Of a DNA stretch of 64,000 nt, positions 20,560-55,739 are shown in pieces. Location: positions 1 to 64,000 of the IMG/VR virus record IMGVR_UViG_3300020048_000014, one strand, 5' to 3'. A program made the position numbers and the translations under genes. The notes below the pieces were generated by a model. The model was not told the origin of the DNA. It did not search any database and was given only the letters and a program-made list of their open reading frames with translations. The stretch's first letter is position 1. Every line of letters starts with the position of its first letter. The stretch is from a virus.

Positions 20560-20571
20560 TATATTATAAAG

Positions 20572-20684
20572 TGATCCGGGTGGAACTCGAATCCACAAAT
20601 TATTGATTTTCGAGGAAAGACTTATTTGATTTATAAATCTTCCCGGAGAAAGTCAATTGCCTATACCAATTCGGCTACCGGACC
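20572..20684 (-). tRNA. tRNA-Phe(GAA) or tRNA-Glu(TTC) with 39-nt insertion in the anticodon loop
   Basis: ggtccgg/ccggatc acceptor; attga-CT-[39 nt]-GAAAA-tcaat; no encoded CCA. Confidence 0.72.
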
Positions 20685-28936: not shown

Positions 28937-29710
28937 TTAAAAATTTGTTTGTTTGATATTATTTGGTGGTATATTTTTTGTAGTGAAAACCGCATTGTAA
29001 TTTTTACTTTTCGGAAACATCGGATCTCTGTATAATTCGTTAGGATGCTCAATTTCCAAAACCACCATATTCCTCGTAAAGAATTTTGAAAGATTTTTGA
29101 CTCCATTTGATTTAGCAGTCTCAATTTTAGAATTGCTTAATTGTTGCTTCAATCTATTTAAAATGGAAGCATCCTTCGTCTGAATCAGATAGATTCTACC
29201 TCCGGGATGTGAGAAAACTGTTGTAGATTCTCTAGGGGACAACCCAATCTTTTGTATTTTAGGTAAATAAAAATTATATGTTATATGATAGAAAGGTGCT
29301 ACCAACTTATCCTCATCCGATAAGAGTGTTGGATACTTTGGTTCAATCAGTAATTTATATTGATAAAAGGAATTCCTTGGAAGAGTCTGCCCTACAAAAT
29401 AACCATATGTGCTCAGTTGTTTATTCAACCTTTCGACGAATGGCTCGATACTAGAACTCTCTTCAACAAATTCTACATATATATCAATTGTTTGAAGATC
29501 ACCGATCTTAGAGAATGTTATATCGAATTCCCGACTTTTGATATTTTGTAAGAATTTTATTACATTCTCTCTAGGATAAGATGTGATTAATCCTTCGTTT
29601 ATCTCATGAGTCCAACAACTTTCACCAAACTTACCGAATATTGAATAATCTTCTGGAATATATTCAAATAAATTAAGGTAGTAATTAAATGCTTTGTCAA
29701 ATTTACTCAT
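28937..29710 (-). CDS. Protein with an ADP-ribosyltransferase/Tpt1-like C-terminal domain
   Basis: FYHIT...IQKIGLSP...GGRIYL pattern. Confidence 0.5.
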   Translation of the reverse strand: MSKFDKAFNYYLNLFEYIPEDYSIFGKFGESCWTHEINEGLITSYPRENVIKFLQNIKSREFDITFSKIGDLQTIDIYVEFVEESSSIEPFVERLNKQLSTYGYFVGQTLPRNSFYQYKLLIEPKYPTLLSDEDKLVAPFYHITYNFYLPKIQKIGLSPRESTTVFSHPGGRIYLIQTKDASILNRLKQQLSNSKIETAKSNGVKNLSKFFTRNMVVLEIEHPNELYRDPMFPKSKNYNAVFTTKNIPPNNIKQTNF

Positions 29711-40553: not shown

Positions 40554-41225
40554 TTATCGTATCGTGGAATCGTGGTGATCCAGTATATTGACTGATTTGG
40601 TGGACATCACATCCTCAATGTCATCGAATGACCATATCTTACCACAGTCGATTCCAATGTCAAGTGTTTTTCCGAGTGGGAATTCTGGTAGTCTCTCAGG
40701 ATCGGATAGATGACTATGGCCGCTCAAATGAATAGTTCTTCTATTTGAGCCATTCCAAATCTTGCATGGGAAATGGTTCATAACAATCCGTTGTTTCCCA
40801 ACTTGAATTTCTACATGATTTCCAACAAATGTTAGATTAGGAATTCTTTTAAAGTTAGCGGGGTAAAGTTCGCCACAACACCCCAAACTTTTGGCAAGTT
40901 CTTCTTTATAGATGCGGTATGTATTCGACTCATGATTGCCCCAGAGTGCTCTAATGTCTTTACATTTTATACAGTGCAACCATTCTACACATTTTTCATC
41001 TGTAGCATTTAAAAACATGTCACCGAGAAAATATAAAATCGCATTCTCTGGGACAGTATCATTGATCAAATTCTGAATCTTAATCGCAGCATCTTCTGCT
41101 GAAGTATATCCACGCTGTTTCCAAATCGGAACAGCCCAAGAAGATGGATCATGGAAAATATGCCAGTCGCTACTAAAATAGAGCTTGTGTCTATCTTCGT
41201 GTTTAAATTTCTCGATTTTATACAT
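40554..41225 (-). CDS. Calcineurin-like metallophosphoesterase
   Basis: SDWH, LGD, GNHE, GHSH. Confidence 0.88.
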   Translation of the reverse strand: MYKIEKFKHEDRHKLYFSSDWHIFHDPSSWAVPIWKQRGYTSAEDAAIKIQNLINDTVPENAILYFLGDMFLNATDEKCVEWLHCIKCKDIRALWGNHESNTYRIYKEELAKSLGCCGELYPANFKRIPNLTFVGNHVEIQVGKQRIVMNHFPCKIWNGSNRRTIHLSGHSHLSDPERLPEFPLGKTLDIGIDCGKIWSFDDIEDVMSTKSVNILDHHDSTIR

Positions 41226-41461
41226 TATTCTTTCTTAAGAGCCTCAATAATTTCATCCATTCCTTGGATAATTTCCACAGTATCGCCATCTTCGACTACT
41301 AATCTTGGAACCGATCTCAGATTATGTTTGAAAAAAAATTCTCTGTCTTCTTCGATAGTGAAATCTTTTATATCTACCTCCAAATTTAGAGCTTTGATTT
41401 TATTTTTTAGGACCATACAAGGTCCGCATGTCTTAGATGTTGCAAGCGTCTTCATACTCAT
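41225..41461 (-). CDS. Glutaredoxin/NrdH-like redoxin
   Basis: CGPC and SVP motifs. Confidence 0.85.
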   Translation of the reverse strand: MSMKTLATSKTCGPCMVLKNKIKALNLEVDIKDFTIEEDREFFFKHNLRSVPRLVVEDGDTVEIIQGMDEIIEALKKE

Positions 41462-41477: not shown

Positions 41478-42560
41478 TTATAAATTACTTTCGATACCAG
41501 TTTTGATTACTTTATCCTCCAATACTTTATTGTCCAAGATAGTAAAGGCGGCACCTTTTCTCCAATCAGGAAAATGTTGAACAATTTCCATGGCTTGATC
41601 CTTTCGGGTGAATGAATCTCCTCGCACATTATGCACTACTAGACGCACTTTGTCAAGTTGTTCTAAAGTTTTATTATAAGCATTGACAATTTTAAGCATG
41701 TCATCCTTTAGTCTTTCGGCAACTTCGAAATCTATTGCAACTTCGATGTATTTATAGAAATCCTCATACTTGGTGAATCGTTCAGTAGTCATGAATAGAT
41801 CAACAACTTGATTGATATTCTTGATACCAGTGCAAATTTTATGCAATTCACAATATTCACTGGCTTTTATCTTCTTCAAGGTTTGACCATCTGGCGAATA
41901 TAGAACAACGCCTTCCTTACCTCTCCAAGCAGCAACGTCATTGAGACATTCTTCGATGGAATCATACTCATACTTTTGAGGACGCTTAAAACCATATTGT
42001 CTACCTATTACATCCAAATAATTTTGGGGATAATATGAACAATCAGCATTTGAAACCGCACCCACTAAGATCAAATCAGGTTCATTAGATTCTCTCAATA
42101 CTATGATATTGTTGGGAGTGACCCACTCAAACAACCAAGTTACCCCAACTGCTTCAGAAAAATCTTTTTGTTCATTGAAAAAATATATATACTTCAATAG
42201 TAAAGTATCGATTTCATGACCATTAGCCATTTGACGAGCATCAGTAGTTCCACGGGTTCTACAAATCCATGAACCCTTATATCTTGATACAATCAATAAC
42301 GATCCATCCAACTTATGACGAGCATCGATCTTCCACGACTTATCCCAAGGTTGAAAATCGGGTTGTTCACTGAAATTAGTAAACTTTAAAAATCCTTGTG
42401 ATACCACAAAATTATCAGACTTACGGAGAATACAAGAACGGAATCTTGCATTTTCATCATTCCACTTACATCCGACATGATTCGGAGTGATAAGCCAGCA
42501 ATCATCTCCTGCGATAACGCAGTCTTTGAAAGTGAATTCTTCAGTCGTTGGTAGCTTCAT
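41478..42560 (-). CDS. T4 Rnl1-like RNA ligase
   Basis: KFTNFSE, KLDGSL (motif I), FEWV, EGVV, KIKASEY. Confidence 0.82.
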   Translation of the reverse strand: MKLPTTEEFTFKDCVIAGDDCWLITPNHVGCKWNDENARFRSCILRKSDNFVVSQGFLKFTNFSEQPDFQPWDKSWKIDARHKLDGSLLIVSRYKGSWICRTRGTTDARQMANGHEIDTLLLKYIYFFNEQKDFSEAVGVTWLFEWVTPNNIIVLRESNEPDLILVGAVSNADCSYYPQNYLDVIGRQYGFKRPQKYEYDSIEECLNDVAAWRGKEGVVLYSPDGQTLKKIKASEYCELHKICTGIKNINQVVDLFMTTERFTKYEDFYKYIEVAIDFEVAERLKDDMLKIVNAYNKTLEQLDKVRLVVHNVRGDSFTRKDQAMEIVQHFPDWRKGAAFTILDNKVLEDKVIKTGIESNL

Positions 42561-43242
42561 ACTCAGAATTATGGTTTAGTGTTTTATCAAGCAAAACCAC
42601 TGTCTTCTTATCAATTTCGTAATATACTTGAGTATTTTCATTCACGAAACGATCCCATGCATCTTGCAAATATTCTGGAATTTCTGGAACATCCGCATAC
42701 TCATCTTCATTAATCTCTCCCAATCTTTCCAAGTAATCCTTAATCATGATTTCTAGTTGACAACTTTTTAGTGTATGTTTTTTAGTTGAACCATATACAT
42801 AATCTGGGAGAGGATAATCATAATCCCAATTATCCCTCAAGTCATCGATGGCATAATAGAAAGTATCACCTTCGATGATAGGATCGCTGTAGTCGGCTTC
42901 TTCTACCTTTATAGCACTATCATAGATGCGCTTATCTCTAGCTTCACAATAAGCATGCATAGCCTTGGAATTACACATCTTAATCTCATCTTCAGTTAGA
43001 TACTTTTCGAGAACTTGTTTTTGGATGGATTCCATCATATATTCAGTGACTTTATCTTTATCTCCAACATTGAAACATTGCTCTGTTTCTGAATTCATGA
43101 TGAGAGATTTAAATGTCTTCCCGGTATCTAATACAGGATTGATCCAGTTATTCAAAACCTTGAGAATTTCTGCCCATCTTTCTTCTGTGAATAGTGGTTG
43201 AAAATATTCTAAAGGATAATTTGTTAGTTGTATATAATTCAT
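42541..43242 (-). CDS. Hypothetical protein
   Basis: 233-aa ORF between ligase and kinase. Confidence 0.8.
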   Translation of the reverse strand: MNYIQLTNYPLEYFQPLFTEERWAEILKVLNNWINPVLDTGKTFKSLIMNSETEQCFNVGDKDKVTEYMMESIQKQVLEKYLTEDEIKMCNSKAMHAYCEARDKRIYDSAIKVEEADYSDPIIEGDTFYYAIDDLRDNWDYDYPLPDYVYGSTKKHTLKSCQLEIMIKDYLERLGEINEDEYADVPEIPEYLQDAWDRFVNENTQVYYEIDKKTVVLLDKTLNHNSEYEATND

Positions 43243-43643
43243 AGTAGTTTTAAATTTTCTCTGATTGTTTTCTCCTGTCTTTGGAGAGTTTCTAATGGCA
43301 CGTTGTGTACATTTTTCCCATCATGTCTGTTCTCTAACACGATAAATGTTACAATGAATCCGACAGCCTTTGCTGTATCGACATACCTCTTCCAGTCTTG
43401 CTCTTTGGCATTAACATTAGCAATGATGATATCTCTATCGGTGAGTGTCAACGCATCTACAAACTTGTTCCAACAATAGCCATGAGCCTTACTCAAACCT
43501 GCTGAATACCAATTATAATTACCATCCTTGTCAGTAAAGTAATCATCGGCGCAGCATACTGCCGCATCTGGAAATAGATTACAAAATGTGGATTTTCCAG
43601 ATCCAGAGCAACCTTTTAATATCAAGAGATGACGTTGTTTCAT
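43239..43643 (-). CDS. P-loop polynucleotide-kinase-like protein (AAA_33 type)
   Basis: GCSGSGKST, ADDYF, HNVP. Confidence 0.8.
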   Translation of the reverse strand: MKQRHLLILKGCSGSGKSTFCNLFPDAAVCCADDYFTDKDGNYNWYSAGLSKAHGYCWNKFVDALTLTDRDIIIANVNAKEQDWKRYVDTAKAVGFIVTFIVLENRHDGKNVHNVPLETLQRQEKTIRENLKLL

Positions 43644-43644
43644 A

Positions 43645-44079
43645 TTATCGAATTTCTATAGTTTTTGGCCAGCTTGCATATACAGAGTTAAATTTTCCGT
43701 TACATATTGTCAAATGAAGACCCCTATAGTAAGGACCATCAACGATTCCGACCTTCTTTTTGATTTGATCTATTTGATCAGAATATACCCGAATATAATA
43801 CATCAAAAATCCCTTGGTGTAACCACCTTCAACAATGTTTTCATCATATTCAAATTCTACAACTTTCTTATCGTTGTAGACTGCTTTATCCCAATTAATC
43901 TTCTTGTTATGGTTAGCTGAATATATGGTAACATGTGCGCCATGAAGGGGAGTGTTCATTCTGATCCAATACTTTTGACAAATAAAATGATAATAAAGTT
44001 TGATCAGATCATCAGAGACATCAAGAACCATCCTACCTTTATGGGGTTGAACGCTTATAATACCAGTCGCACGGAGCAT
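43645..44079 (-). CDS. 2H phosphoesterase (cyclic phosphodiesterase-like; start revised)
   Basis: Two HxT motifs (HVT, HLT) about 70 aa apart. Confidence 0.7.
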   Translation of the reverse strand: MLRATGIISVQPHKGRMVLDVSDDLIKLYYHFICQKYWIRMNTPLHGAHVTIYSANHNKKINWDKAVYNDKKVVEFEYDENIVEGGYTKGFLMYYIRVYSDQIDQIKKKVGIVDGPYYRGLHLTICNGKFNSVYASWPKTIEIR

Positions 44080-44104: not shown

Positions 44105-44662
44105 TCAAGTCCAGAGATATTGTCTATTCTTAATAATCCCAATCATTGCTTCAGTGTCCTTATCCTCGATCAGTTTCTCTAACCGATGAACTTCTCTGTA
44201 TGCTTCTTCGTAAGACATACCATAGATTTCTTCTACAGATTTCATCCTATAAGATTTTACCGTTTTACCATCTTCTTCCACAATAGGATCGCAGAGATCA
44301 AGAATATCGCCACCATTGATAGATGTAGGATATGATTCGTCCAGTTCTTCTTGGAGTAAGGATCTATCAGTTTTGATGTATTCATAAATTTCTTCTAATT
44401 CTTTTCTGACTGGCTCTCTTGTTGCTCGATAAAGTTCAGAATAAGATTCATTTGTATAACGTTCACCCCAAATGGATTCAAGACCTTCTTCTTTTTCGAC
44501 AAAATGTTTTAGAATTTCAAAAAGACATAAAGGAACCAATTCAACAGAATCGCACCACGTATTAGGAATCTTCCTAATTAGCCATTTTTGACGCGGATTG
44601 AACCATGCTCTCAAGTCATACCATTTCATTTTCCACCAAAATTTATTTGTTATTGTATTCAT
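44105..44662 (-). CDS. Hypothetical protein
   Basis: 185-aa ATG ORF. Confidence 0.8.
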   Translation of the reverse strand: MNTITNKFWWKMKWYDLRAWFNPRQKWLIRKIPNTWCDSVELVPLCLFEILKHFVEKEEGLESIWGERYTNESYSELYRATREPVRKELEEIYEYIKTDRSLLQEELDESYPTSINGGDILDLCDPIVEEDGKTVKSYRMKSVEEIYGMSYEEAYREVHRLEKLIEDKDTEAMIGIIKNRQYLWT

Positions 44663-45377: not shown

Positions 45378-45770
45378 TTATTTTGTAATTTTAAGATTGC
45401 TAACATCGATGCCAAACTTAGCAGCAATTTCGTCAAATGTCAATACATTTTCTTTAGCAGTTAGACGATTGAAGTCTTCCTCAGAAAAATACATGCCATC
45501 AACACACCACAATTTAGATCCATCAGCACGCTCAACTGCTGGGCCATCAAGGCGATGAAGCTTGTCATCTACATACCACCCTTTAGTTCCATTAGCATAC
45601 TCAACCGCTGGGCCATCAAGACGATGAAGCTTACCGTCAACATACCACTCTCTATTGCCAGTAGCATACTCAATGGCTGGTCCATCAGTGCGATGCAAAA
45701 TCTTCATAGCTGCATCGCTATAATAAAACTTCTCTCCGTGTTTGGTAATTTTAATATATTGTTCGTTCAT
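45378..45770 (-). CDS. HRxDGPA-repeat protein, paralog 2
   Basis: Three HRxDGPA repeats. Confidence 0.85.
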   Translation of the reverse strand: MNEQYIKITKHGEKFYYSDAAMKILHRTDGPAIEYATGNREWYVDGKLHRLDGPAVEYANGTKGWYVDDKLHRLDGPAVERADGSKLWCVDGMYFSEEDFNRLTAKENVLTFDEIAAKFGIDVSNLKITK

Positions 45771-45772
45771 AA

Positions 45773-46165
45773 TTATTTTGTAATCTTAAGTTGCTCGACG
45801 CTGATGCCAAACTTAGCAGCAATTTGCTCCATTGTCAAGACAATCTCTTTAGCAGTTAGACGAATGAACTCTTTTTCAGAAAGATACTTGCCATCAATAT
45901 ACCATAAGTTATTCCCATCAGTATACTCAATTGCTGGGCCATCAAGTCGATGAATCTTACCATCAACCCACCACTCTTTATATCCACTACTATGCTCAAT
46001 GGCTGGGCCATCAAGACGATGAAGCTTGTCATTTACATGCCATGCTTTATACCCATCAGCAAACTCAATTGCTGGACCATCAATGCGATGAAGAATTTTC
46101 ATAGCTGCATCGCTATAGTAATACTTATTACCATATTCGTCAATTTTAATATATTGTGTTTTCAT
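45773..46165 (-). CDS. HRxDGPA-repeat protein, paralog 3
   Basis: Three HRxDGPA repeats. Confidence 0.85.
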   Translation of the reverse strand: MKTQYIKIDEYGNKYYYSDAAMKILHRIDGPAIEFADGYKAWHVNDKLHRLDGPAIEHSSGYKEWWVDGKIHRLDGPAIEYTDGNNLWYIDGKYLSEKEFIRLTAKEIVLTMEQIAAKFGISVEQLKITK

Positions 46166-46602
46166 AGTAATGTTAGTTTATCTGTCAACCCTTCAAACAT
46201 ATTATCATAGGCTGGACCGATTGCAATAGCTGTTTTTGTCTTTACTCCATTAAATTCGGTTGCGCCATTATCTTCAACAAGATGAGACAACAATCCTTTG
46301 GCCAACGCTGCTTCATGTAGGTCTATAAGCTCTTGCTCTGACTCTACATAACATACAATCTTACGGAAGGAATGGTTAAGCCAATGATCAATTTCCTCAT
46401 AATGTTTTTCCATATCTGAATGTTTGTTGATAAAACTATACTCATGATAGTCACAGGCCCCATATTCTATGTCATGGTTCATGCGTCCACTTTTAGTTAG
46501 GAAAGCCATGCTAGCGTGTGAAGCCTGTGACATTTCTTTTCCTCGTCGCATCTTAAGGTCTTTACGAATAACTATAACTTGTTTTGTATTTTCTTTATTC
46601 AT
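46162..46602 (-). CDS. pth2: Peptidyl-tRNA hydrolase type 2 (start revised)
   Basis: KQVIVIRKDLKM..GK..SQASHAS, KIVC, D.G.TEF, TAIAIGP. Confidence 0.88.
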   Translation of the reverse strand: MNKENTKQVIVIRKDLKMRRGKEMSQASHASMAFLTKSGRMNHDIEYGACDYHEYSFINKHSDMEKHYEEIDHWLNHSFRKIVCYVESEQELIDLHEAALAKGLLSHLVEDNGATEFNGVKTKTAIAIGPAYDNMFEGLTDKLTLL

Positions 46603-46622
46603 ATTATTATATCCGTGTTCTT

Positions 46623-46868
46623 TTATCGTTTCCATGAATAAATTGTCACCCATGCTGCAATGCACAACCAATGAAAATTAATATCTGTATTTAGATGCGG
46701 TTGGAATCCTCCTCCATTTGTTGTAAGAGTGGGTTTCCAATACCACCAATTACGACCAAATCGTGGTCTGGTTGGTGCATCAAGCTCCCATTGTTCAAAT
46801 ACCTCGTTTGTAGTTTTACCTGCAAGAGTCGTGCCAAAGAAAATATTCCGTGTAATCTCTTTTATCAT
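46623..46868 (-). CDS. Small Trp-rich protein
   Basis: 81-aa ATG ORF. Confidence 0.6.
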   Translation of the reverse strand: MIKEITRNIFFGTTLAGKTTNEVFEQWELDAPTRPRFGRNWWYWKPTLTTNGGGFQPHLNTDINFHWLCIAAWVTIYSWKR

Positions 46869-46905: not shown

Positions 46906-48297
46906 TTAACTTTCTTCTTCCATGTCAGATTCTCCAGCATCCCTAGCTTTACATTCTGCTAAATTGAATTTCGGACTCTTAAATTTAAGAACTGGCTTAG
47001 TTTCCTTAGAATTGATTTTCAAAACAATACCTTCGTTGACGACACCCGTTTTGCAGAGTTCGCATGTTTTATCAAGATACTTTTCATGTAACTTGTGAAG
47101 AAAGTTCTCTCCAAATGAACTATCTAGGGGAATTTCAGGGAATAAATCCGTTACCTTTCCTTTGTAGTATACCGGGACATGTTTTAAACCATGATCTTCA
47201 CAGAATCCTTCAATTTCATTCCAAGAAAATTCAGTCACTTTTCCTTCTTCATTGGTGTGTGTGACTCTATAAACCCAAAATTCTGATTCGCCTTGAGTTA
47301 TCCCATAATCATAATTCTTCTGGATATTCCTATTAGGGGAGGCCCACCCTAAAATTTCTCCATATACTGAAATTCCTTTAGGGATATTACCATCCAATTC
47401 TTTAGCGTGTTTACCCCAAACGTCTTCACTATATGTCCCATCACGTTTATTTTTGATGATCGAACGACTGGAATATACAAAGAGATAATCAATCGCTGGA
47501 ATGTCAAACCCAATCATTTTTTTAAACATTGAAAATAATGACAACGATTTCTTGCACAGCAGATTAGCAAAAATTGCCGATGTTCCATGAATTTTGTTAG
47601 AGATTGTGATATTATCATTTGGATCGACGATAAAAATATTACGACCAAGTTGTTCAGTTTTCCCGTGGAAATACCACTGACCGTCAACAATTTGAGATTT
47701 GATACCCTCAGATTTAATAGCACCGTAATACCATTTGACGACAGGATAGATAGCCAATCTAATTGGTCTAGGAAGGCTACCAATGCTCTTGGATACCCAT
47801 TTAGGGATCTTGGGTTGTTTGCTATTCGGATCACCTTGAACTTTTGTATCTGGTCGGATATACTTCGTTACAAGAAGGTCATCACCAACTGTATCAAAAT
47901 TTTCCCCGACATGGAAGATATCATCCTTTAAGTCATAATATCTAATAAGTTCTGAAACTTTAAATAAAAATCCCTGAGACGGAACACCACGTAAATTAAT
48001 TGCCTTAACTCTTCGTCCTTTAGAAGAGAAGTAAGATTTTGTTACACCATCAGCATTCAACACGGGATCATTAAAAAGATTTGCCCATGACAAGAATTTG
48101 GCGGATAAACAAGACTCAATAGGGAAATACGCCAACTTATCATTTTGGGAATATACTCCTTTCCCGACAATAATACTATTTCCAAAAATTTCAACGATTT
48201 CTAATCTGTCAGCAGATGGATGAGTTTTAATTTCTGGACACTTGATTACGACTGCTGCGTAATTTGGGTCACAATTTTCACTTATGCTCAATTTCAT
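46906..48297 (-). CDS. Second RNA ligase-like protein (Rnl2/DRB0094 type, N-terminal OB-like domain)
   Basis: HPSADRLE, KIHGTS, GEILG, EGIV, KFKS. Confidence 0.78.
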   Translation of the reverse strand: MKLSISENCDPNYAAVVIKCPEIKTHPSADRLEIVEIFGNSIIVGKGVYSQNDKLAYFPIESCLSAKFLSWANLFNDPVLNADGVTKSYFSSKGRRVKAINLRGVPSQGFLFKVSELIRYYDLKDDIFHVGENFDTVGDDLLVTKYIRPDTKVQGDPNSKQPKIPKWVSKSIGSLPRPIRLAIYPVVKWYYGAIKSEGIKSQIVDGQWYFHGKTEQLGRNIFIVDPNDNITISNKIHGTSAIFANLLCKKSLSLFSMFKKMIGFDIPAIDYLFVYSSRSIIKNKRDGTYSEDVWGKHAKELDGNIPKGISVYGEILGWASPNRNIQKNYDYGITQGESEFWVYRVTHTNEEGKVTEFSWNEIEGFCEDHGLKHVPVYYKGKVTDLFPEIPLDSSFGENFLHKLHEKYLDKTCELCKTGVVNEGIVLKINSKETKPVLKFKSPKFNLAECKARDAGESDMEEES

Positions 48298-55133: not shown

Positions 55134-55739
55134 TTAGTGTTTAATCAATGGTCGAGCACTCTCGAATATCCCCTTAATTATGGGTCTAGCGATCCCATTT
55201 GCACTATGAACGTAATACGTGGGTAGAGGGTGCTGAAACTCCTTACAACGCTCACATAACCATGCTGCACAATGCGCCCCAGTTTTGATTGAAGAGTTTT
55301 CCCAATCAATCATCTGAAACATTTTTCGGACATCTTCTTCTGGGACGTTACTACATTCTGGAATCCACAAATCATTATCGAATGATACTACTTGTGGAAT
55401 TCCATGAGTTTCGACATAAGTCACGAATTCATCATACGATCTTACTATATCCCATTTAAAATTAGCGATGCCAGAAACTTGTTGAAGAGTTTTATTTTCA
55501 TCCCAAATGAAAGCATGTTGCGGGATTCGGTCATCATCAAGGAAGAGAGATCGTTGAGGTTTATGATTATCCGCCTCTACATTTTCGATTACCGATGAAA
55601 AATCATTTGAAAATTTTGTATATGAATCATACTTTTTATTTTTCATATTATCCCATAATGGGCTATTTCTATACGCTGAATGATCAGATATTCGGCAATC
55701 CGATCCTTTGCCCCCGTGCCATTGTTTAGGTTTCGCCAT
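55134..55739 (-). CDS. Receiver-like (cyclic-phosphate processing) domain protein
   Basis: LFLDDDR.P, SFDNDL, TG...A.WL, VHSAN. Confidence 0.7.
   Translation of the reverse strand: MAKPKQWHGGKGSDCRISDHSAYRNSPLWDNMKNKKYDSYTKFSNDFSSVIENVEADNHKPQRSLFLDDDRIPQHAFIWDENKTLQQVSGIANFKWDIVRSYDEFVTYVETHGIPQVVSFDNDLWIPECSNVPEEDVRKMFQMIDWENSSIKTGAHCAAWLCERCKEFQHPLPTYYVHSANGIARPIIKGIFESARPLIKH

Follow-up and report, generated by a model that had tools for sequence, protein, structure and literature searches.

A 2H phosphoesterase, kinase and Rnl1-type ligase gene cluster as a probable RNA break-repair island of a T4-like freshwater phage

The stretch of viral DNA analyzed here (the window, 64 kb) is the beginning of the 196,721-bp IMG/VR record IMGVR_UViG_3300020048_000014, which is rated 96% complete and derives from an uncultured T4-like freshwater phage. 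Its minus strand holds nearly every gene between ~40.5 and 48.3 kb, and positions 41478-44079 of that strand carry a four-gene set coding for a small 2H phosphoesterase (mini-2H), a P-loop kinase, a 233-aa protein and an RNA ligase, two of the genes overlapping their neighbor (Table 1). A preliminary description of this DNA had recognized the co-oriented genes, with one gene between kinase and ligase, and had assigned the three domain types; all four open reading frames (ORFs) and all three domain calls were verified. It had also read the set as a split counterpart of the fungal tRNA ligase Trl1, working through a 2'-phosphate in tRNA splicing or repair. This Trl1-like reading is not supported by our results. 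They favor an island for the repair of breaks in RNA, chiefly in tRNA, which would probably be a disaggregated relative of the T4 Pnkp-Rnl1 system and counter host anticodon nucleases.

Table 1. Features of the cluster and of its surroundings in the 64-kb window, with E-values of some family matches.
Feature	Position	Strand	Remarks
Mini 2H phosphoesterase, 144 aa	43645..44079	-	Predicted 2',3'-cyclic phosphodiesterase, 3'-end healing
Stand-alone 5'-OH polynucleotide kinase, 134 aa	43239..43643	-	Without phosphatase domain
Acidic 233-aa protein (unk233)	42541..43242	-	Variable insert between kinase and ligase
Rnl1-family ATP-dependent RNA ligase, 360 aa	41478..42560	-	phrog_562, TIGR02308, T4 Rnl1 profile match
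Small thioredoxin/glutaredoxin-like protein (Grx)	41225..41461	-	TCGPC in sequence; between ligase and phosphoesterase
Calcineurin-type metallophosphoesterase (MPE), 223 aa	40554..41225	-	phrog_547 at 4e-26; candidate 2',3'-phosphate remover
185-aa gene just upstream of 2H gene	44105..44662	-	No family match
Histidine phosphatase (branch 1), 219 aa	44677..45336	-	PF00300 at 1e-15; second candidate phosphomonoesterase
Peptidyl-tRNA hydrolase PTH2	46162..46671	-	PF01981 at 3e-27
Second RNA ligase, DRB0094/Rnl2 kind, N-terminal OB domain	46906..48297	-	PF09414 5e-13, PF21189 6e-6, phrog_968 7e-56, TIGR02306 4e-13
tRNA-Leu(UAA) split after U34 by 39-nt hairpin insert	20571..20684	-	aragorn with introns allowed; possible substrate
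ADP-ribosyltransferase-like (ART-like) protein, 257 aa ('Tpt1-like candidate')	28937..29710	-	Weak Tpt1 NAD-lobe resemblance

The four genes are tightly packed. One base separates the stop codon of the 2H gene from the ATG of the kinase gene, the kinase and 233-aa genes overlap in an ATGA, and the 233-aa and ligase genes share 20 nt. Starting from the ATG at 44079, the 2H gene gives a product of 144 aa, the same length as the database entry and most homologues. A promoter and terminator scan remained at chance level, and megablast of the region against GenBank phages returned no match.

The sequence of the ligase identifies it as T4 Rnl1-like, not Trl1-like. It matches phrog_562 at 2.3e-36 over residues 33-354, and TIGR02308 at 8e-12; phrog_562, annotated as 'RNA ligase and tail fiber attachment catalyst', is the T4 gp63 family. 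Single-sequence PDB searches with the ligase, the 2H protein and the kinase yielded nothing useful, and family profiles were needed. With its profile, the ligase matched T4 Rnl1 (2c5u) at 1.6e-15, hhalign giving 1.6e-12. As to the helical C-terminal domain typical of Rnl1, the direct hhalign and PDB alignments to T4 Rnl1 end near residue 250, and the phrog_562 alignment reaches residue 354. Invariant in the family are K83-x-D85-G86, E145, E216-G217, K230-x-K232, K59 and F60, i.e. motifs I, III, IV and V as well as the N-terminal Lys and Phe. No Trl1-LIG chain was matched by this profile at E<=1. Trl1-LIG constitutes a separate clade, Rnl6, and its need for a 2'-PO4 has been ascribed to the clade-unique residues Asn150 of motif I, His227, Arg334 and Arg337, the motif I Asn (KxNG) being in contact with a 2'-PO4 mimic (PMC6379707). 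At the position of this Asn the phage family has the invariant Asp85 (KxDG, as in T4 Rnl1), and at the position of the Trl1 His, nine residues after motif III by manual count, there is a Val.

One related ligase gene displays an unusual structure. At L002:9510-11954 (IMGVR_UViG_3300032312_000788; related IMG/VR loci are numbered with L) the break in the Rnl1 gene falls precisely on motif I. Its first ORF has ...KLDG and continues into an intein-like start, C-CDENTILF..., the third has an intein-like ending, ...NNILVHN, followed by S-LLIVSKYKG, and a separate 314-aa ORF in between codes for a putative free-standing homing-type endonuclease. Rfam gave no intron at this broken gene. The layout resembles that of a split intein whose halves are separated by another gene, a 'fractured gene' arrangement that is known from metagenomes.

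The kinase is of the T4/Clostridium Pnk type, minus the HAD phosphatase. It displays the P-loop GCSGSGKS (GxSGxGK[ST] in the family) and an invariant D33 within ADDY that aligns with RDDY of T4. The family profile matches the kinase domain of Clostridium thermocellum Pnkp (CthPnkp, 4gp7; 1e-4, the best solved match) and T4 Pnk (1ly1; 1.2e-4) over the full length, hhalign against residues 2-149 of T4 Pnkp gives E 3.8e-10, and the PHROG matches are phrog_2071 at 6.5e-30 and phrog_505 at 5e-5. The family is present in >600 GenBank phages, and this gene is the single PNK-like one in the whole genome. The protein ends at residue 134 with no C-terminal HAD (DxDxT) 3'-phosphatase domain, and there is no PF08645 (HAD PNK3P) match anywhere in the genome; the contrast to the kinase-HAD Pnkp of T4 that had been drawn earlier thus holds for the genome as a whole. 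Moreover, no RtcB was found in the genome, and no PF01885 (Tpt1) match at E<=1 in its 196,721 bp. Since a Pnk-type kinase is present without HAD PNK3P, RtcB or Tpt1, healing of the 3' end must come from other enzymes.

Two phosphatases encoded close to the set are candidates for part of this task. All motifs of the MPE are invariant in a 10-sequence alignment (D20xH22, G68D69, G96N97H98, H151, G169H170xH172), its best solved relative is aq_1665 at 2e-8, and two of its relatives pass the Pfam Metallophos_2 cut-off. In each of six related genomes that are complete or nearly so, the genes for the MPE, Rnl1, the kinase, the 2H protein and the histidine phosphatase are all found. The 2H protein is encoded at 47 IMG/VR loci, and genes that are kept in this way across dozens of related phage contigs are therefore real genes and not chance ORFs. 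Close relatives maintain the order 2H-kinase-(233-aa gene)-Rnl1, and many related loci maintain Rnl1-Grx-MPE. At L008 and L009 the 2H, kinase and ligase genes follow each other in a row, with gaps of 70-220 bp that are too short for another gene. In the closest relatives, L002-L004, 1.5-1.8 kb of extra DNA lie between the 2H and kinase genes, where the window has one base.

Outside this phage group a smaller set of genes was encountered. Two unrelated cultured phages, inoa (genus Vequintavirus, rV5 group) and Vibrio phage 184E37-3b, have the kinase (phrog_2071) directly beside Rnl1 (phrog_562) and a phrog_547 MPE, and no 2H gene is annotated in the ~7-kb regions shown for these two phages. Because this trio occurs there without an annotated 2H gene, the widespread core would seem to consist of kinase, Rnl1 and MPE, with the 2H gene apparently added in the present phage group. 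In its predicted enzymes this core resembles a bacterial Pnkp split into separate parts more than it does Trl1. Two Sir2-like genes adjoin the Rnl1-kinase-phosphoesterase trio of Escherichia phage inoa (L052, 615-2103), which fits the published idea of sirtuin-centered RNA repair; tblastn revealed no relative of either Sir2-like protein in the six genomes, although a divergent sirtuin could escape such a search, made without profiles.

The 2H protein of the window matches only phrog_12204 (no assigned function), at 5e-12; searches of Pfam, NCBIfam and PDB sequences gave no match, and profiles of its family found no solved relative by sequence. It contains two 2H motifs (HxT/S), H49-V-T51 and H122-L-T124. 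In a 46-sequence family alignment with 30% mean identity H49 and H122 are the sole invariant residues and T124 is kept in at least 90%, and homologues keep PLHGAH(I/V)(T/S) and GLH(L/I)T. We compared the AlphaFold (AF2) model, which has a predicted local distance difference test (pLDDT) score of 79, with 48,161 chains by VIA, and 17 of the 20 best structural matches were 2H enzymes (Z 3.6-5.6, 89-116 residues aligned). The highest Z scores were obtained for CNPase (5.6), Acb1 (5.4), the cyclic phosphodiesterase (CPDase) of Deinococcus, drCPDase (5.3), the phosphodiesterase of phage BCSR5 (5.2) and E. coli ThpR (5.0), followed by LigT, AKAP18, VP3, Usb1 and a plant CPDase (1fsi, Z 4.1). Foldseek gave weak rows only for the same model, VIA being clearer. 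Despite the modest Z scores the protein can be placed in the 2H superfamily, because 2H enzymes are enriched among the matches and both motifs are present.

Within the superfamily, sequence comparison suggests that the Pfam family nearest to mini-2H is 2H-SAK (PF22547) and not the CPD domain of Trl1. 2H-SAK represents the 2H domain found in the RNA-repair protein 'Swiss Army Knife'. Among the relatives, 8 of the 27 close ones and 12 of the 46 distant ones reached it (best E 3e-6), and no other Pfam family was reached by any relative; CBB_185, a member from a jumbo phage, scores 35.1 bits against a 2H-SAK cut-off of 27. A profile search of 1.84 billion representatives gathered 479 mini-2H clusters at 50% identity, and the 150 of them that were listed are all small (68-195 aa), none being fused to another domain. 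We found no report of any member of the family being characterized, and no paper on BCSR5 and phosphodiesterase together.

Gene contexts of distant family members, drawn from GenBank phages only, favor a role at RNA ends. In the Ralstonia jumbo phage RsoM2USA the mini-2H gene comes directly after a TROVE/Ro60-vWA gene. Its copy in Pectobacterium phage CBB adjoins a gene annotated as DUF2828 and has an RNA ligase at a distance of 3.5 kb, and in RaK2 and 121Q it stands ~2-3 kb upstream of a gene for a CCA-adding enzyme (so labeled in RaK2; 'phosphatase' in 121Q), followed by Nudix and glutaredoxin genes.

The structural matches also bring up a role outside RNA repair. Acb1, the anti-CBASS (cyclic oligonucleotide-based antiphage signaling system) protein of T4 gene 57B, resembles mini-2H in size and predicted fold and in standing alone as a small phage 2H protein, and both it and the BCSR5 phosphodiesterase, also of similar size, are among the best matches. 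The window protein might accordingly serve counter-defense in the manner of Acb1, destroying host cyclic (oligo)nucleotide or 2'-5' signals, and merely lie beside the kinase and ligase genes. That this T4-like genome has no recognizable T4 57B/Acb1 homologue, and that in distant relatives the 2H gene is not beside the kinase, would agree with such a role, but mini-2H has no detectable sequence relation to T4 Acb1 (hhalign probability 0.9-8%) and occurs in another genomic context, one base from the kinase gene here and beside a TROVE gene or near an RNA ligase in unrelated jumbo phages, and its only Pfam link is to an RNA-repair domain. On balance we regard the counter-defense role as rather unlikely. 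Orthology with T4 Acb1 was rejected on sequence. In the comparison with T4 57B and FBB1 Acb1, hhalign gave probabilities of 0.9% and 8%, the PDB profile search gave E 1.7 to Acb1, and the structural Z of 5.4 does not exceed that of other 2H enzymes.

A further possibility is that RNA ends are not the substrate of mini-2H, which would instead act on small cyclic phosphates derived from NAD, for example ADP-ribose 1''-2'' cyclic phosphate. Plant and yeast 2H CPDases do so (PMC9503650), and the plant enzyme 1fsi is among the structural matches, but it matches no better than other 2H enzymes, and no Tpt1 or relative of the inoa Sir2-like proteins was found that could make such a product. This makes an NAD-derived substrate very improbable.

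Taken as a heal-and-seal system, the cluster is well supported. In the scheme that we favor, the mini-2H enzyme would open a cyclic phosphate to give a monoester, and the MPE and/or the histidine phosphatase would strip that phosphate, leaving a 2'-OH,3'-OH end. The stand-alone kinase would phosphorylate the 5'-OH, and the Rnl1-type ligase would then seal the ends by a normal 3'-5' bond without a 2'-phosphate. Alternatively, the MPE alone may perform both opening and removal, like the phosphatase domain of CthPnkp. Since the two phosphatases accompany the trio in all six genomes, the 2'- or 3'-phosphate could be removed prior to ligation. The two kinds of ends have been distinguished in vitro, where 2'-OH ends from wild-type CthPnkp were sealed by T4 Rnl1 and 2'-PO4 ends by the yeast ligase (PMC1920235). 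Surveys by comparative genomics assign to phage 2H proteins the probable task of clearing cyclic ends ahead of ATP-grasp RNA ligases, in company with polynucleotide kinases and with phosphatases of the HAD, calcineurin-like or HD type, and they note KptA as an addition in some phages (PMC7824862, PMC9503650).

In the Trl1-like route of the preliminary description, the 2H enzyme would yield 3'-OH,2'-PO4 ends, the ligase would join them while they still carry the 2'-phosphate, and this would then be removed by a Tpt1-like enzyme, either the phage ART-like protein or a host KptA, mainly for splicing of the hairpin-bearing tRNAs. It is true that 2H CPDases generally leave a 2'-phosphate and that a route through 2H and KptA has been predicted for phages (PMC9503650), and the split tRNAs in the genome need a ligase. 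The ART-like protein has no Pfam or PHROG match, and the only PDB matches of its family profile at E<0.5 are Tpt1 NAD lobes (E 0.019-0.37, ~38 residues). The resemblance covers the start of the NAD lobe, YH(G/I)T...GL.P (YHIT...GLSP in the window), and lies in the C-terminal half, with RIYL further downstream; the N-terminal half bears no likeness to Tpt1, and neither an Arg nor a His is invariant in it. In Tpt1/KptA the catalytic set Arg-His-Arg-Arg spans both lobes. An ADP-ribosyltransferase fold is probable for the product of this gene. Among the six module-bearing genomes, however, the gene occurs only in that of the window and is absent even from genome G006, where intron and module occur together, so that it is not a conserved partner of the module. 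Adding to this the absence of PF01885, a ligase with KxDG instead of KxNG and no Trl1-LIG profile match (PMC6379707), two phosphatases as the conserved partners and an intact tRNA-Leu(UAA) in four module-bearing genomes, we consider the Trl1-like route unlikely.

The preferred reading as an RNA-repair island is likely, and should nevertheless be taken with some caution, as several observations weigh against it. First, the structural Z scores of the 2H model are modest (at most 5.6), Acb1, a degrader of signaling nucleotides, scores like the true CPDases, and a Pfam match is missing for the window protein. Secondly, an MPE able to heal cyclic ends unaided would make the 2H enzyme superfluous. 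Thirdly, more distant relatives have the order Rnl1-Grx-MPE-...-2H, with 10-30 kb between the kinase and 2H genes, and as synteny is in any case general among T4-like genomes, linkage is weaker evidence than it appears. Finally, this uncultured phage has no known host nuclease to counter, and the roles given to the enzymes rest on their predicted activities.

The interrupted tRNA of the phage allows the connection to splicing to be examined across relatives. According to aragorn with introns allowed, tRNA-Leu(UAA) is split after U34 by 39 nt in the window genome (G000) and by 38 nt in G006; four genomes that also have the module, G001, G002, G007 and G008, carry an uninterrupted copy. The split form is confined to a single subclade. 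In a pattern scan of IMG/VR a split tRNA-Leu gene was found in three contigs only, those of L002, L003 and L004, the other 50 of the 53 pattern hits not being tRNA-Leu genes with an intron. A BLAST search of ten related genomes with the split-tRNA locus came back blank; it had missed true copies that the pattern scan and aragorn detected, and was not used as evidence. As regards co-occurrence with interrupted tRNAs, the module is far more widespread than the tRNA intron.

The 233-aa gene follows the intron more closely. It is beside the kinase and ligase genes in exactly the intron contigs (G000, G006, G009 and the contig of L003) and is absent from the four complete relatives with intact tRNA-Leu(UAA). 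It is also missing from L006-L010 and L024, where the gap between kinase and ligase measures 70-1700 bp, and its protein has homologues in only ~20 clusters. Because the carriers are close relatives, the association with the intron represents one evolutionary event and not a statistic. The 233-aa protein has no Pfam, PHROG or NCBIfam match; its AF2 model has a pLDDT of 81, yet gives no fold match (Foldseek E>0.2; VIA Z<4), and the ESM Atlas offered no lead. The preliminary description had named it as a candidate endonuclease on account of its position, and this proposal found no nuclease-like fold or motif to back it, only a distribution shared with the intron. In the subclade with the hairpin-split tRNA-Leu(UAA) the same kit may also join tRNA exons. 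That 2H, kinase, unk233 and Rnl1 form a dedicated protein-only tRNA splicing kit in this subclade, with the 233-aa protein as the endonuclease or a hairpin-recognizing factor, has a slim chance of being correct.

The 185-aa gene has no family match in Pfam, PHROG or NCBIfam. It is found beside the 2H gene only in L002-L004 and L011 (58-63% identity); G001 and G002 have weaker matches (28% and 40%) at other places in the genome. L002-L004 carry both the 233-aa and the 185-aa gene, as does L011, whose 25-kb contig is too short to judge the intron. Between the histidine phosphatase and PTH2 genes, at window positions 45378-46165, are two tandem 130-aa paralogues with MORN-like repeats; the first (MORNa) has a full-length match in only 1 of 5 relatives (G002), and partial MORN-like copies adjoin the 2H gene in L014-L017 and L045.

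Other tRNA genes of these phages are unusual as well. At 193136-193210 of G000, outside the window, and also in G007, G008 and L148, aragorn reports a tRNA with a CUA anticodon (labeled tRNA-Pyl), of amber-suppressor type, which in L148 is called with a 49-nt insert. Furthermore, tRNA(CAU) genes of 92-94 nt are located at G008 166640-166733, G007 55502-55593 and G002 141536-141628, all three within ~700 nt of tRNA-Leu(UAA). Their variable region, as drawn by aragorn, forms a 5-bp stem-loop in G007 and G008, and no more than a long unpaired loop in G002; this is unusual for a Met/Ile-type tRNA.

The cluster can be compared with several known systems. T4 Pnkp (pseT) and Rnl1 (rnlA) are the textbook case of viral mending of host-cut tRNAs, directed against the anticodon nuclease PrrC. 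The phage set shares with them an Rnl1-family ligase with all catalytic motifs, a kinase homologous to the Pnkp kinase domain, a T4-like genome and the logic of healing both ends before sealing. It differs in having no HAD 3'-phosphatase, 3' healing being assigned to 2H, MPE and histidine phosphatase, and the proteins are only ~25-30% identical to those of T4 in local hhalign alignments, a distance at which single-sequence structure searches missed them. CthPnkp, of the Pnkp/Hen1 system, is the best solved match of the kinase and likewise combines it with a calcineurin-type phosphoesterase and a ligase, but the phage parts are separate genes, the MPE is nearest to aq_1665 and not to the CthPnkp phosphatase, and the ligase is Rnl1 and not Rnl4. 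With Trl1/AtRNL (LIG-KIN-CPD, i.e. ligase, kinase and cyclic phosphodiesterase) the set has in common an ATP ligase with an Rnl1-like adenylyltransferase core, a P-loop 5' kinase and a 2H phosphodiesterase, and separate proteins, as in the phage, also exist as the stand-alone LIG and KIN of Mucorales (PMC11571804). By contrast, Trl1-LIG, a member of the Rnl6 clade, possesses a distinct C-terminal domain and a 2'-PO4 pocket (PMC6379707), and the phage ligase has Asp in place of the Asn and matches T4 Rnl1 only, while the phage 2H is 2H-SAK-like, no Tpt1 was found, and the gene order is 2H-kinase-x-ligase.

The cluster is a new instance of a system that comparative genomics has already predicted. 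Burroughs and Aravind (2016) are also said to have predicted phage 2H/kinase/ligase repair from comparative genomics. Phage systems of 2H, PNK and ATP-grasp ligase have been described in two surveys (Iyer et al. 2021, PMC7824862; 2022, PMC9503650), and both the combination and the role proposed here are exactly as predicted. Those surveys center on jumbo phages and on KptA or sirtuin partners, whereas here a 197-kb T4-like freshwater phage has a tight 2H-kinase operon and no KptA or sirtuin was detected.

In conclusion, the presented data point to a group of T4-like freshwater phages that keeps the kinase and ligase of the T4 repair system and in which the HAD phosphatase is replaced by a small 2H protein together with metal-dependent and histidine phosphatases. 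The mini-2H protein bears on whether phage 2H enzymes feed Rnl1-type ligases, on which end they make and on whether an extra phosphatase is needed. Moreover, for the unexplained hairpin mini-introns that interrupt tRNAs of this phage, the cluster is the one evident means of ligation.

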